A DNA stretch of 64,000 bases from positions 10,382-74,381 of IMG/VR virus record IMGVR_UViG_3300021255_001482; one strand, 5' to 3'. Both the position numbers and the translations under genes were made by a program. The DNA comes from a virus (taxonomy: Duplodnaviria; Heunggongvirae; Uroviricota; Caudoviricetes). The notes below the pieces were generated by a model. It had not been told where the DNA came from and made no database searches. It saw nothing but the letters and a program-made list of their open reading frames with translations. Each line of letters begins with the position of its first letter. The stretch's first letter is position 1. Shown piece after piece: positions 28,104 to 43,964 of the stretch.

Positions 28104-28326
28104 ATTTATAGAAAGAACGGAATCCACCCGATATGGCTGTGGCTACAAGGTGCGGAAGGGTGGCGGTAGTATTACGCCTCAATTGGCGAAACGATATGCC
28201 AATTGAGGATGAAATAAAGCATAATAACGCAAGAGAGTAATACATGACGTAAGTATTTAATTGATAGAGAATGTAGCCGTGCTTCTGGCGGTGCGTTACC
28301 GACATACTTATGGACGCCAGATTTAT
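28104..28326 (+). ncRNA. Promoter-driven structured leader RNA upstream of tRNA-Val (unclassified).
   Basis: There is no ORF. It begins just downstream of the promoter at 28075-28103. It contains a perfect 11-bp hairpin CCTCAATTGGC/GCCAATTGAGG and a CCACCC...GGGTGG helix. Confidence 0.35.
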
Positions 28327-28399
28327 GGAGGATTGACGCAATTGGGAGCGTGTTTCCCTTACAAGGAAAAAGTTGGCGGTTCGAGTCCGTCATCCTCTA
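28327..28399 (+). tRNA. tRNA-Val (TAC).
   Basis: Acceptor GGAGGAT/ATCCTCT, D stem ACGC/GCGT, anticodon arm TTTCC-CTTACAA-GGAAA, T-arm GGCGG-TTCGAGT-CCGTC, CCA encoded. Confidence 0.65.
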
Positions 28400-28402
28400 C
28401 CA

Positions 28403-28527
28403 AGACCCATACAGCAATTTACAAGCTGGACTGAAAATCCCGGCAACTGTTGGTTCGAATCCAACCTACCCCACCATTTATGGGGTAGTGGCGAAAGTGG
28501 CAAACGCACGTGAAAGACAGTGGGTCT
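28403..28527 (+). ncRNA. Y-RNA-like / permuted-tRNA-like module E1.
   Basis: Outer stem AGACCCA/TGGGTCT with box ACAGCAATT right after the 5' arm. Inside: T-arm GTTGG-TTCGAAT-CCAAC, acceptor-3' CTACCCC, A, CCA, linker TTTAT, acceptor-5' GGGGTAG, then D-arm-like GCG..GG..CGC. Confidence 0.45.
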
Positions 28528-28534
28528 AGATTAT

Positions 28535-28607
28535 GGCTAGGTAGCTCAGATGGTAGAGCGTTGGCCTGAAGAGCCAAGCGTCACTGGTTCAATTCCAGTC
28601 CTAGCCA
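28535..28607 (+). tRNA. tRNA-Phe (GAA).
   Basis: Acceptor GGCTAGG/CCTAGCC, D-arm TAGCTCAGATGGTAGAGC, anticodon loop CTGAAGA, T-arm ACTGG-TTCAATT-CCAGT, CCA encoded. Confidence 0.7.
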
Positions 28608-28624
28608 CCAATTCCGCATTGCGG

Positions 28625-28728
28625 TTAGGCACACACAGCAATTTTCTTATATGTAAATGTTGAATGATATAGAAAATTGAATCGCCAAATACTAAAGGCC
28701 GTCGTTATTAAGCAAAACGAGTGCCTAG
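28625..28728 (+). ncRNA. Hairpin module E2 with the conserved box.
   Basis: 5' arm TTAGGCAC plus box ACACAGCAATT. 3' arm GTGCCTA about 80 nt downstream. The interior is AT-rich with a D-arm-like GCC-AAATACTAAA-GGC. Confidence 0.4.
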
Positions 28729-28774
28729 AAAAAAAGTTGATACTTAATCAAGCTTTTAGTATTTGGTATTATCT

Positions 28775-28846
28775 GTCGGTATAGTTCAACGGATAGAACA
28801 TGACACTTCTAATGTCATTATCTGGGTTCAATTCCTAGTACCGACG
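28775..28846 (+). tRNA. tRNA-Arg (TCT).
   Basis: Acceptor GTCGGTA/TACCGAC, D stem GTTC/GAAC, anticodon arm TGACA-CTTCTAA-TGTCA, T-arm CTGGG-TTCAATT-CCTAG, CCA encoded. Confidence 0.65.
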
Positions 28847-28855
28847 CCATGTTAT

Positions 28856-28927
28856 GGGCTTATAGTATAGCGGCTAGTACATATGCTTTGCACGCATAAA
28901 ACTGGGGTTCGATTCCCCATAGGTCCA
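28856..28927 (+). tRNA. tRNA-Ala (TGC).
   Basis: Acceptor GGGCTTA/TAGGTCC (two G-U pairs), anticodon arm TATGC-TTTGCAC-GCATA, T-arm TGGGG-TTCGATT-CCCCA, CCA encoded. Confidence 0.55.
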
Positions 28928-29015
28928 CCAAGATGGAAGGTCGCCCCTTCCAAGGCTATAGTTCCTAACCTTGGTTTCTAAAACTTGCGAGGATAGAGAC
29001 CGAAAGAACTAATAT

Positions 29016-29089
29016 GTTCCACTAGCACAATTGGCTAATGCATCTGACTCTTAATCAGGGGAGTCTGGGTTCGAATCCCAGGTGGAGCA
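29016..29089 (+). tRNA. tRNA-Lys (CTT).
   Basis: Acceptor GTTCCAC/GTGGAGC, anticodon arm TCTGA-CTCTTAA-TCAGG, T-arm CTGGG-TTCGAAT-CCCAG, CCA encoded. Confidence 0.55.
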
Positions 29090-29194
29090 CCAGACGGTAC
29101 GAAAGCACGGCACCAAACCCAAAGCAGCGTCATGAACTGTACAGTGCCTTGTGTGTTTCCTATTTCCACAAGTAAAGCTAATAAAAATAGGTCG

Positions 29195-29271
29195 CGTGTT
29201 CGATTTATCTAACGGAGAGGATACGTGACTACGAACACGGCATAGGGGTTCGAATCCTCTATCGCATGCCA
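29195..29271 (+). ncRNA. tRNA 3'-half-like element (8-bp hairpin + T-arm + acceptor-3' + CCA) with no matching 5' half.
   Basis: Stem CGTGTTCG/CGAACACG, then AGGGG-TTCGAAT-CCTCT, ATCGCAT, G, CCA. No complementary acceptor 5' strand was found. Confidence 0.3.
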
Positions 29272-29278
29272 TTAATAT

Positions 29279-29368
29279 GCGGGAGTAAGCCTAATTGGTA
29301 AGGCAGTAGTTTGGAGAACTACCAGTAATCGAGTAATCGGTGTTAGAGTTCAAGTCTCTACTCTCGCG
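29279..29368 (+). tRNA. tRNA-Ser (GGA), type II.
   Basis: Acceptor GCGGGAG/CTCTCGC, anticodon arm GTAGT-TTGGAGA-ACTAC, 21-nt variable arm, T-arm TAGAG-TTCAAGT-CTCTA, CCA encoded. Confidence 0.6.
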
Positions 29369-42214: not shown

Positions 42215-42345
42215 GCCCCGGTGGCGGAATAGGCAGACGCAGCGGACTTACGTGGGCCCAGTGGCTTGTTGGAGAGCAGCACTCCTTCCCACGACCAAAA
42301 TCCGCTATCCGTGAGGGTGTACGGGTTCAAGTCCCGTCTGGGGCA
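42215..42345 (+). tRNA. Interrupted type-II tRNA. Removing about 47 nt from the anticodon loop gives tRNA-Leu (TAA, loop CTTAAAA).
   Basis: Acceptor GCCCCGG/CTGGGGC, D-arm GCG-GAATAGGCAGA-CGC, anticodon stem GCGGA/TCCGC, 15-nt variable arm, T-arm ACGGG-TTCAAGT-CCCGT, A73, CCA. The insert forms the hairpin CGTGGG...CCCACG. Confidence 0.45.
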
Positions 42346-42351
42346 CCATAT

Positions 42352-42425
42352 GAGCTTGTAACCGAATTGGCATAGGTACTTGGCTCAAACCCAAGGTTTT
42401 GTGGGTTCGACTCCCACCAAGCTCA
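42352..42425 (+). tRNA. Class-I tRNA with anticodon CAA (Leu-type anticodon, short variable arm).
   Basis: Acceptor GAGCTTG/CAAGCTC, anticodon arm CTTGG-CTCAAAC-CCAAG, T-arm GTGGG-TTCGACT-CCCAC, A73, CCA encoded. Confidence 0.45.
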
Positions 42426-42429
42426 CCAT

Positions 42430-42458
42430 TTGACTTTCTTCTAAAATTATAATATAAT
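42430..42458 (+). promoter_or_regulatory. Conserved promoter family member.
   Basis: TTGACTTTCTTCTAAAATTATAATATAATAATTATAG. Confidence 0.55.
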
Positions 42459-42485
42459 AATTATAGTAAAGGGAAAGGATAATTT

Positions 42486-42632
42486 ATGATTAAATGTGAA
42501 ATTTTTCAGCATGATTACCAGGTAGTAAATTTTTGTAATGAGAATCACATTACTAAAGAAAATATAATTTCATTGCTTTTTAATCCTGAATTGTTATTTA
42601 GTTATAGATTATTCTATGAGGTAAATAATTGA
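42486..42632 (+). CDS. Small hypothetical protein (48 aa).
   Basis: It follows the promoter at 42430-42458 and an AGGGAAAGGATAATTT RBS. Confidence 0.4.
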   Translation: MIKCEIFQHDYQVVNFCNENHITKENIISLLFNPELLFSYRLFYEVNN

Positions 42633-42658
42633 CTTTTAGCAGAAAATCTGCTATAATA
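42629..42658 (+). promoter_or_regulatory. Conserved promoter driving module E5 + tRNA.
   Basis: TTGACTTTTAGCAGAAAATCTGCTATAATAATTATG. Confidence 0.55.
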
Positions 42659-42667
42659 ATTATGTAA

Positions 42668-42730
42668 GGCGGCCACAGCAACTATTATTTAAGCAGTAAT
42701 CTTTTAAATTATGTAGCTAAAAATCCGCCT
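42668..42730 (+). ncRNA. Hairpin module E5 with the conserved box variant (CCACAGCAACT).
   Basis: Arms AGGCGG/CCGCCT. It lies directly after the promoter at 42629-42658 and before a tRNA. Confidence 0.35.
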
Positions 42731-42737
42731 AGAATTT

Positions 42738-42811
42738 GGGCTTGTAACCGAATTGGCATAGGTACCGGTCTTAGAAGCCGGGTTTTGGAAGTTCAACTCT
42801 TCTCAAGCCCA
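42738..42811 (+). tRNA. Class-I tRNA with anticodon TAG (Leu-type anticodon, short variable arm).
   Basis: Acceptor GGGCTTG/CAAGCCC, same D-arm as 42352, anticodon arm CCGGT-CTTAGAA-GCCGG, T-arm GGAAG-TTCAACT-CTTCT, A73, CCA encoded. Confidence 0.45.
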
Positions 42812-42814
42812 CCA

Positions 42815-43241
42815 GTCACCTCCCGCAAGAAAAGTGACAAGTCGCGTTAACATTCGTTTGTTAGCTACGCTGGGAAAACGCGACTATAAAATACAAAGAA
42901 GCCAGGCCAACGGCGCTAACCGTATGTAGCGACCGCCGTAACTATCACATTCTAGGAGTCCTGACACTGTTATTGGACTTAATACTCAACGGATATGCGC
43001 GCAAAACAAATCCTAGAATGTTATGGCATCAAGTAAAGAGCCTTCTCGTGGCGATGCTGTTTTGACTAATCTTTACATAAATATTAAAGAGCGCTTTTCC
43101 TTGCTGTACACTCGTTGAAAAGCCAAACGTTCCCGTATGAGAATACGCAGGTTATACCTGTATATTGAAGCCCCATAAGACGTCGTAAAGGAATGGATAG
43201 AAATTACAATGGGCCATTCAGAAAGTAGAACACTTTAATAT
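42815..43241 (+). ncRNA. Roughly 430-nt ORF-free region (candidate structured RNA).
   Basis: No ORF of 60 aa or more is present on either strand between 42633 and 44064. Confidence 0.3.
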
Positions 43242-43270
43242 TTGACTTTTTCTGAAAATCATGCTATAAT
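43242..43270 (+). promoter_or_regulatory. Conserved promoter driving a 27-aa ORF + 575-nt ncRNA + tRNA-Asn.
   Basis: TTGACTTTTTCTGAAAATCATGCTATAATAATTATAG. Confidence 0.55.
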
Positions 43271-43389
43271 AATTATAGAAACAAGGAAAGGAAGTAGATA
43301 CCCTATTTAATAAAATGGTTGAACCAAGTGAAGAAGAGTTAACCACTCTGCTTGGGCTACCTGAACAACAGCCATACGATTTGGCGGGA

Positions 43390-43964
43390 TACTACTAAAT
43401 CGCGGCCGCAAAATCAGTAATGATTAGCGATAAGGAGAAACTCCAAATGTTAAGGGTAGGCGCTTGGTTATCCGCTAACAAAAGCACGATTCCTCACGGC
43501 ATTATAATAGAAGTCAAGCGTTAAAAGCGTAGACTGAATCCTAGTTAGGGTTTAGCCGGTGACTGTATCAAACCTAGGAAAGACCAACAAGGTGCTATTG
43601 TCGTTGAAACCTAGAAATAGGCTATAAGTGAGGTTTGCGGTAAAAGTAGCTTAAAGTGACAACAAGTTCTTGGTATTAGAACAAATAGAAAATATTTGAT
43701 TTATTATTAAAGAATTTGCTGAATGGTTTGAGTGAAATTTGAGAGTAGACAATCTCTCCGTTGCTAGTCGAAAGACAGGGTGAAGAAGTTAAAGGGTCGC
43801 TACCTTTGGCTCAGCCTTCATCTTCAACGTGGCTGAATATGTTTAGAAGGATAATACAAGTATGACGAAGGTCGCAACGGTTTTATTAAATAGGGTATTT
43901 GCCCTAATGCGTTCTTTGATATGACCTCACTCTTGCCCGTTAGAGTAATAAACGGGACCTCCAT
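43390..43964 (+). ncRNA. Roughly 575-nt ORF-free region downstream of the promoter at 43242-43270 and a 27-aa ORF. Candidate large structured RNA (ROOL-like size).
   Basis: It is promoter-driven with no ORF. It ends in the hairpin GCCCGTT...AACGGGAC immediately before tRNA-Asn. Confidence 0.3.

Follow-up and report, generated by a model that had tools for sequence, protein, structure and literature searches.

What do the long segments without open reading frames (ORFs) in the transfer RNA (tRNA) islands of an uncultivated phage encode, if they encode anything? The sequence studied here, hereafter the window, is a 64,000-nt stretch of an IMG/VR virus record (IMGVR_UViG_3300021255_001482) with a GC content of about 35%, a phage-like character and all long ORFs on the plus strand. 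ARAGORN predicted 29 tRNA genes between 27.8 and 48.2 kb of the window, and an earlier note on this DNA drew attention to seven ORF-free segments among them, numbered here S1 to S7 along the plus strand, on which all segments, modules, promoters and interrupted tRNAs described below are located. Our analysis revealed that S7 is a member of a known RNA family, ROOL, and suggested that the ORF-free segments are probably discrete structured RNA genes in tRNA operons, co-transcribed with the tRNAs, released by tRNA processing and acting in trans. This reading builds on what was observed in the segments: they do not code for protein, are conserved, show covariation and lie next to promoter motifs and tRNAs.

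A megablast search of the island against GenBank phages yielded only a 33-nt tRNA match, and the phage is thus without annotated relatives. Comparative data were obtained from IMG/VR using the 511-aa protein encoded at 35471–37006 as the query, which returned 80 related loci, many of them on phage contigs of 100–190 kb; these were supplemented with loci fetched with conserved DNA blocks, and individual relatives are denoted by L-numbers (L001 etc.). Modules were mapped across the relatives with blastn and nhmmer, and S3 was searched with nhmmer profiles built on an alignment of 494 columns. A base pair was counted as covarying when changes occurred on both of its sides, and the counts were compared with 500 shuffles and with slid-register alignments; relatedness inflates this count less than any of the other measures. 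Permissive Rfam scans (E ≤ 10, short input, lax filters) covered positions 28074–30760 and 38900–43300, and the conserved blocks were searched as exact patterns in 185,579 species-representative genomes.

The ORF-free character of the segments was borne out, as none contained a plus-strand ORF of at least 60 aa except for an 80-aa ORF with a TTG start codon in S4 (38966–39208). This ORF runs into the adjacent tRNA-Met, and it is broken by a 1-nt deletion in L001 and by a stop codon in L006. Recoding of TAG, TGA or TAA disclosed no hidden long frame in the segments, apart from a run of 100 codons in S5 when TAG was read through; this frame was dismissed because the S5 homologues carry indels that are not multiples of three.

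The motif TTGAC-N18-TATAAT was found 23 times in the window, always on the plus strand, against an expectation of 0.08, and sixteen 11/12 promoter matches were located between 27.4 and 45.4 kb. A consensus promoter at 28075–28103 (TTGACT-N17-TATAAT with TG) would drive S1 and the tRNA run downstream. Other consensus promoters would drive S2, tRNA-Ile, S3 and tRNA-Ile(UAU) (29891–29919); S4 and two tRNA-Met genes (38910–38938); a Y-RNA-like leader, tRNA-Leu(UAG) and the S6 modules S6c and S6b (42629–42657); and ROOL with tRNA-Asn (43242–43270). A TTGACG-N17-TATAAT promoter (41719–41747) would drive a small ORF together with S5. The earlier description of most segments as starting just after a promoter was accurate for S1, S2 and S4, which begin 1–2 nt past a −10 box, and did not apply to the remaining four. 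As listed, S5 and S7 start some 115–120 nt past a −10 box. S3 and S6 lack a promoter of their own, each beginning at the 3′ end of a tRNA. Six of the seven segments do end at a tRNA, the exception being S6, which ends at the ROOL promoter; the tRNAs closing S3 and S5 are interrupted tRNAs that ARAGORN missed. Furthermore, S2, S5 and S6 were each found to combine two or three modules that are independent of one another. No intrinsic terminator or antiterminator was predicted on the plus strand of any segment.

The identity of one segment could be settled directly. S7 is a new member of the known family ROOL (Rfam RF03087), which extends over 43300–43893 and matches the covariance model over its full length (positions 1–574 of 574) with 324.2 bits against a gathering threshold of 99.1 (E = 7.5e-74). 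The start originally listed for S7 (43390) therefore lies 90 nt inside the RNA. With 594 nt, the copy agrees with the expected length of about 580 nt, and its fold and phage/tRNA context are also those expected of ROOL; its minimum free energy (MFE) of −172.9 kcal/mol corresponds to z = −4.8 relative to dinucleotide shuffles. The −10 box of the upstream promoter ends at 43270, so ROOL would be the first thing transcribed from it. A tRNA-Leu lies upstream, and tRNA-Asn (43965–44041) follows after a 71-nt spacer (43894–43964) that is conserved only in the L003 contig. Syntenic ROOL copies were present in six close relatives (L002, L003, L007, L136, L140 and L158), and ROOL was also found in the tRNA islands of two of the six more distant relatives scanned (L016 and L050). 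ROOL and GOLLD RNAs are known to sit by phage tRNA islands, where co-transcription with the tRNAs is possible (PMC5737381; PMC12286853), and ROOL is a free-standing, self-assembling RNA whose homo-oligomeric nanocage has been resolved by cryo-electron microscopy (cryo-EM) (PMC12286853). The other modules resemble ROOL in lying on the tRNA strand, in having a promoter of their own or tRNA flanks, and in lacking an ORF. In contrast, S1–S6 have no detectable sequence or structural kinship with ROOL, are smaller (180–430 nt) and have so far been seen in a single clade of uncultivated phages only.

Among these modules, S3, S1 and S6c were well supported as conserved structured RNA families, with compensatory changes above the controls. 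The largest is S3 (30319–30746), an unclassified RNA of about 430 nt with tRNAs on both sides, for which 24 distinct homologues were collected. Its predicted structure comprises 73 pairs in at least 14 helices (14 in the model, including one pseudoknot), with 96.8% of the alignment cells canonical, and invariant blocks such as UAGUCCGGAAU and GAUGGAUUGAGGCCC alternate with variable helices. The alignment contained 45 covarying pairs against 23.6 ± 2.7 in shuffled alignments (none of the 500 was as high) and 9–14 in slid registers. In about 20 phages, the 3′ end of S3 is followed at 0–3 nt by tRNA-Ile(UAU) or a CAU tRNA, and the upstream neighbour varies (Ile-GAU, Trp or Thr). A likeness to RNase P RNA, group I introns or tmRNA, suspected by eye from the UAGUCCGG block, received no model support. 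S3 is flanked by two complete tRNAs and is therefore not an intron.

S1 (28104–28326; 223 nt) represents an unclassified family of about 220 nt and abuts tRNA-Val(UAC), which starts at 28327. In its 13 distinct members, 36 pairs were 95.9% canonical and 13 pairs covaried against 6.8 in shuffled alignments (0/500 as high); tRNA-Val(UAC) directly follows in 9 of the 13. S6c (42815–43082; about 265 nt) is likewise unclassified and lies directly 3′ of tRNA-Leu(UAG), as it does in seven of its eight members. Its 55 pairs were 97.7% canonical, and 14 of them covaried, compared with 5.3 after shuffling (0/500) and 0–2 in slid registers. Across the three families, slid registers gave 0–14 covarying pairs. 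In many phages, all three are maintained at 70–95% identity and contain invariant blocks. The 3′ hairpin of S6c (GGCAUCAAGUAAAGAGCCUUCUCGUGGCGAUGCU; 43030–43066) also occurs alone in other phages, in each case directly after the 3′ end of a tRNA (L050 3420–3476, and in L149, L166, L156, L127, L142, L124 and L158). The idea that this hairpin is specific to ROOL was rejected, and it looks like a small, widespread tRNA-trailer motif.

The remaining modules were represented by fewer sequences. S2a (29920–30098; about 180 nt, five members) and S5c (41955–42214; about 260 nt, four members) are probably structured RNA families without an Rfam match too. In S2a, 48 pairs were 98.3% canonical and eight covaried (3.7 in shuffles, 2/500 as high; 0–2 in slid registers; five sequences), and in S5c, 45 pairs were 96.6% canonical and eight covaried (3.1, 0/500; 0–2; four sequences). 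S6b (43062–43241; about 180 nt), which lies between S6c and the ROOL promoter, is found in five phages and missing from three others; its 41 pairs were 91.5% canonical, with eight covarying against 5.4 in shuffled alignments. S2b, the variable 3′ part of segment 2 (30099–30241), abuts tRNA-Ile(GAU) and was found only in the window and in L324. S4 (38940–39170) is a 231-nt non-coding cassette between its promoter and tRNA-Met. It is shared at 96–98% identity with L001, L002 and L006 and is absent from L004 and L007, in which the promoter almost abuts the tRNA. The stem substitutions among these near-identical homologues only change G-C to G-U or repair mismatches, and a 16-mer scan of IMG/VR gave chance matches, with no new homologue among the matches listed.

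The 5′ part of S5 has a different composition. A conserved 45-nt tail (S5a; 41862–41906) follows the small ORF, and in relatives a drum RNA (RF02958) is inserted after it. This RNA occupied the S5-homologous site in L001, L002, L003, L004 and L136, and no covariance-model match to it was obtained in the window. The adjoining hairpin region (S5b; 41907–41962) gave a partial match to DUF3800-XI (RF02975) at 41909–41938, which covered only positions 1–30 of the 48 in the model and scored 33.8 bits, below the gathering threshold of 37.8; a true member of DUF3800-XI in L002 scored 64.5 bits.

The Rfam scan and the search for conservation among related phages, both suggested in the earlier note, identified S7 as ROOL, left S1–S6 without an above-threshold family and placed most segments in families that recur in other phages with covariation. 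In the permissive scans of S1–S6, nothing other than tRNAs and the partial DUF3800-XI match in S5 was obtained at E ≤ 10; there was no match to ROOL, GOLLD, OLE, raiA, RNase P RNA, tmRNA, group I or II introns, or known ribozymes and riboswitches, and no tRNA-like match was detected inside the segments even at this level. The conserved blocks of S3 and S1 had no exact match in the species-representative genomes, and all their occurrences were on phage and metagenome contigs from this clade. An IMG/VR catalogue of candidate viral structured RNAs contains only motifs of 30–151 nt (PMC10690425); whole RNAs as large as these lay beyond its reach, although fragments may be listed. GOLLD is a large ornate phage or prophage RNA that often lies next to tRNAs (e.g., tRNA-Met) or contains them, and it belongs to the same tRNA-linked, accessory kind as the modules described here; it is expressed during lysis (PMC12286853). 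It differs in its fold, and no GOLLD match was present anywhere in the islands at E ≤ 10. The drum and DUF3800-I to XI RNAs are comparable as classes of small structured RNA derived from metagenomes (Weinberg et al. 2017), but these motifs are 50–110 nt long and usually followed by terminators, which are absent from the segments. The earlier statement that such regions are unusual for a phage is only partly right: structured RNAs in tRNA islands are already known from ROOL and GOLLD (PMC5737381; PMC12286853), and what is unusual is the number of distinct unclassified RNAs.

Tiny ORFs with ribosome-binding sites had been reported ahead of some segments and taken as a sign of leader peptides or attenuator-like control. 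One of them appears to be real: the gene at 41769–41861 encodes a conserved 30-aa protein (MIIVRKTSRTVFSSSWTRREQAEMLDEWQN). Its copies in seven relatives differ by 9-nt indels that keep the frame and by synonymous changes, the stop codon is conserved, and the gene is retained even where the upstream promoter has been replaced. These features suggest that it is an ordinary small gene and not a leader peptide. The 27-aa ORF at 43315–43398, whose ATG lies 24 nt from a Shine–Dalgarno-like sequence, is located inside the 5′ domain of ROOL; it carries a premature TAA in L002, L003 and L007 and an ATA in place of the ATG in L136, and is therefore spurious. The leader TATAAT-ATTTATAGAAACAAGGAAAGGA (41741–41768 and 43265–43290) precedes both a protein gene and ROOL, so the promoter and its 5′ leader form a cassette that is reused for coding and non-coding genes; the combination of promoter and AAGGAAAGGA leader is a generic cassette before proteins and RNAs. 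A further ORF of 48 aa (42486–42632), with its own consensus promoter and a strong ribosome-binding site, is retained in L001 and L002 and, more distantly, in L004, and is probably a real small protein gene among the RNA genes.

Taken with their surroundings, the segments suggest the following route. A host sigma-70-type polymerase would recognise the near-consensus phage promoters and produce a precursor containing the structured RNAs and the neighbouring tRNAs. The RNAs abut the tRNAs at 0–3 nt with no terminators between them, so that their ends would be made by tRNA-maturation enzymes: RNase P would cleave at the 5′ end of the downstream tRNA, and the 3′ end of the upstream tRNA would be trimmed by RNase Z or exonucleases. 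Co-transcription and release of this kind have also been proposed for ROOL and GOLLD. The freed, stably folded RNAs could then act in trans, an assumption likewise made for those two RNAs. They are accessory, exchangeable cassettes that are gained and lost among close relatives. In tRNA-punctuated processing, as in mitochondrial punctuation and in MALAT1/mascRNA, cuts by RNase P and RNase Z at flanking tRNAs set the ends of the adjoining RNAs. The 0–3 nt abutment would point to the same maturation route here; those systems are eukaryotic or organellar.

Several other explanations of the segments were considered. If they were attenuator-like leaders governed by the translation of tiny upstream leader peptides, the short ORFs with Shine–Dalgarno-like sequences ahead of S5 and S7 and the promoter and AAGGAAAGGA leader module common to both would be accounted for. 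As in the trp, his and pheST attenuators, a short ORF would stand upstream of a structured untranslated RNA; unlike in those systems, there is no terminator/antiterminator pair, no run of regulatory codons and no regulated downstream protein gene. Because the S7 ORF lies within ROOL and is truncated or startless in relatives, the S5 ORF evolves as a normal protein gene, no plus-strand hairpin with a T-run was predicted in any segment, and S1, S2, S3, S4 and S6 have no such ORF, we consider this type of control highly improbable. A neutral origin, whether as remnants of decaying tRNA genes, as recombination scars or as spacers in a tRNA array that evolves fast, would fit the differing module content of close relatives, the few or no diverged homologues of S2b, S4 and the 71-nt ROOL–tRNA spacer, and the unremarkable MFE z-scores. 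However, no tRNA-like signal was detected in the segments even at E ≤ 10, and S1, S3 and S6c combine their sequence identity and invariant blocks with compensatory changes exceeding the shuffled and slid controls. Lack of conservation and variability among close relatives had been named in advance as signs of junk; presence and absence do vary, but each module is conserved as a family. We consider such an origin improbable. The segments are non-coding and lie behind strong promoters on the tRNA strand, and they appear to be neither junk nor decayed tRNAs. We regard as similarly implausible that they are elements mobile at the RNA or DNA level, namely ORF-less introns, homing cassettes or insertions with a ribozyme, directed at the boundaries of tRNA genes. 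The clean presence or absence of S4 at a promoter/tRNA junction, the drum RNA inserted in the S5 of relatives and the tRNAs in the same islands with inserts at a fixed anticodon-loop position would agree with mobility, but there was no Rfam match to group I or II introns or self-cleaving ribozymes, flanking repeats and endonuclease ORFs were lacking, and the segments lie between complete tRNAs rather than inside genes.

The most serious competitor is that the RNAs act in cis as dedicated leaders or trailers of particular tRNAs, and not independently in trans; they might, for example, control the folding, processing order, stability or modification of tRNA-Ile(UAU), tRNA-Val or tRNA-Leu(UAG). 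In about 20 phages, S3 precedes tRNA-Ile(UAU) or a CAU tRNA at 0–3 nt regardless of its upstream neighbour, tRNA-Val(UAC) comes after S1 in most S1 members, S6c almost always follows tRNA-Leu(UAG), and the lone S6c-type hairpin is always directly 3′ of a tRNA. Nevertheless, the size and complexity of S3 (430 nt, 14 helices with a pseudoknot, and long single-stranded blocks that are invariant) far exceed the needs of known tRNA leaders, relatives express the same tRNAs in the absence of a module, S4 being the example, and four S1 members have no following tRNA-Val. In addition, ROOL, which has the same genomic arrangement, is free-standing and self-assembling (PMC12286853). A cis role is therefore unlikely, albeit less so than the alternatives above. 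The preferred reading, that the segments are RNA genes acting in trans, also has points against it. That S3 and S1 are so strictly linked to a single tRNA species could itself mean a cis role. Module content differs among close relatives while each family keeps a fixed tRNA partner, and this presence/absence variation means that each of the RNAs is dispensable. The alignments used for counting were also those from which the structures had been derived, and the families of S2a, S5c, S6b and S6c are shallow (4–8 sequences). For S6b, 27 of the 500 shuffles were as high as the observed count, so its support is weak, and the homologues of S2b and S4 are too few or too similar for covariation, so that these two are claimed only as non-coding. 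Single-sequence folding energies were unremarkable for S1–S6 (z from −1.8 to +0.5); MFE z-scores singled out ROOL alone and were uninformative for the remaining segments. Finally, transcription, processing and function in trans are all read from genomic anatomy.

The genes between and around the tRNA islands provide a further context. The 511-aa DUF2828/DUF7788 protein (35471–37006) belongs to phrog_850, annotated as ‘RNA-binding protein’ in PHROGs, and has at least 7,977 homologues at E ≤ 1e-10; sequence and profile searches against the PDB gave no match to it. Its AlphaFold (AF2) model had a predicted local distance difference test (pLDDT) score of 84.6, and the top five Foldseek matches of this model in the PDB were all Ro60/TROVE structures aligned over the full length (E = 4.6e-8 to 2.1e-6), which predicts a Ro60/TROVE ring with a vWA fold. 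Also encoded between the islands are a metallophosphoesterase (33866–34531), a protein with a cREC (cyclic-phosphate-processing) domain (37462–37818) and an Rnl2-like RNA ligase (38049–38699); a similar set of RNA-repair genes has been described in tRNA-rich phages (PMC7824862).

About nine Y-RNA-like elements were recognised in the spacers by a closing stem of 6–8 bp and a conserved ACAGCAA(Y) motif; they are located at 28403–28527, 28626–28727, 29374–29494, 29672–29736, 42667–42730, 45132–45249, 45677–45777, 45795–45872 and 46396–46510. The motif CACAGCAAY occurred seven times compared with 0.94 expected. The longer elements contain a circularly permuted tRNA-like module (V hairpin, T arm, looped acceptor and D arm), and the element family is retained with covariation in the distant relatives L008, L009, L016, L023, L024, L048, L057 and L142; one individual element is conserved across distant relatives. 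This layout of a closing stem with four arms corresponds to that of the bacterial Y RNA YrlA (Chen et al. 2014, PMC4201824). The likeness to the YrlA and Ro60/Rsr system includes the arrangement of the spacer elements, the Ro60-fold protein and a setting of RNA repair and tRNA mimicry. In contrast, the phage elements have ACAGCAA where YrlA has GNCGAA, and the single match to the YrlA model (46417–46514) was full-length and sub-threshold (31 bits against 69). None of the seven listed segments is itself Y-like. The Ro60-fold protein is a likely partner of the Y-like RNAs, and the islands would therefore encode a Ro60-like protein and probable Y RNAs beside ROOL and the new RNAs. Given this RNA-centred region, with its Ro60-fold protein, Y-like elements, ligase, cREC protein and phosphoesterase, a role of the structured RNAs in a contest with the host over tRNAs and translation appears most likely.

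The two interrupted tRNAs deserve a separate description. In tRNA-Ile(UAU) (30747–30900), at which S3 ends, a 74-nt tRNA-like insert separates anticodon nucleotides 34 and 35, as mapped by alignment with the uninterrupted copy in L002 (4378–4454). Across phages, the insert measures 45–76 nt and is predicted to fold into a 7-bp acceptor-type stem and a T-arm-like hairpin with a free ACCA end. Interrupted copies were also present in L003 (8122–8272), L007 (6247–6395), L185, L086 and L082, with three insert variants at one site, and uninterrupted copies in L002, L001 and L081; ARAGORN called the L003 insert as a tRNA with a CTA (amber suppressor) anticodon. No description of such an arrangement came up in the literature searched. 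One idea is that RNase P and RNase Z excise the insert and that the phage Rnl2-like ligase reseals the anticodon loop. The second, tRNA-Leu(UAA) (42215–42348; Rfam tRNA model, 42.8 bits), closes S5 and was missed by ARAGORN. Its anticodon loop contains, at U34/A35 or beside it, a 47-nt minihelix-like insert that consists of a 6-bp stem and a hairpin with an ACCA end; the same arrangement occurs in L003 (19308–19441), and the tRNA is uninterrupted in L173, L001, L002 and L136. Over-long Rfam tRNA matches in L002 (15865–15981), L016 (2185–2302), L014 (6215–6347) and L156 (1113–1272) suggest that interrupted tRNAs are common in the clade.

Other parts of the islands also contained conserved non-coding sequence. 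An 875-nt ORF-free region between the two tRNA-Met genes and tRNA-Glu (39325–40199) and a 149-nt spacer between two tRNA-Glu genes (40275–40423) consist of mosaics of blocks conserved in relatives, and neither matched Rfam, GOLLD included; the block at 39551–39960 showed 12 compensatory pairs with 13% of cells non-canonical. The spacers 28611–28774 and 29093–29278 are conserved in five to eight relatives, and the latter holds a near-threshold tRNA-like match (29198–29268; 28.6 bits). Positions 29581–29664 probably encode a tRNA-Tyr(GUA) with a long variable arm, which ARAGORN missed and Rfam matched weakly as ‘tRNA-Sec’ (32.7 bits); a tRNA-Tyr(gta) occupies the corresponding position in relatives. 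Of 18 long ORFs in the window, 14 end in TAA, 4 in TGA and none in TAG, and tRNAs with CTA (amber-reading) anticodons were found in the relatives L003, L158, L195 and L324. This may hint at avoidance or suppression of TAG in the clade; the window genes are nonetheless read normally in code 11. A 744-aa protein (14411–16645) with four DUF285 (‘Mycoplasma’) repeats and a weak match to an EndoS-type leucine-rich repeat is a possible receptor-binding protein and gives a hint of a Firmicutes or Mollicutes-type host.

Large, intricately folded RNAs of bacteria and phages are rare, and earlier ones opened new biochemistry, such as ribozymes and the RNA-only cages of ROOL and GOLLD. In this one phage region, ROOL is the known family, and the comparative evidence points to three well-supported and two probable new families, in addition to some spacers with too few or too similar homologues for such a comparison. 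The covariation in S3 is enough to define a fold, making it ready for cryo-EM and for rumen-type RNA-seq, and handles on function are offered by the strict tRNA pairing of each RNA and by the surrounding module of Ro60-like protein, Y-like RNAs and ligase. More speculatively, S3, S1 and S6c could be new ‘ornate’ phage RNA classes comparable to ROOL and GOLLD that work within a single RNA toolkit, with the role of S3 tied to the AUA-decoding tRNA-Ile; we consider this possible but rather doubtful. If true, the toolkit would unite ROOL, about nine Y-like tRNA mimics, the Ro60-fold protein, the Rnl2-like ligase and the split tRNAs, all matured by the tRNA machinery, and a clade of large uncultivated phages would use it to protect or re-programme translation during infection. 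Our results suggest that phage ‘tRNA islands’ might be better viewed as general RNA islands; if so, current phage annotation would leave kilobases of functional sequence blank.

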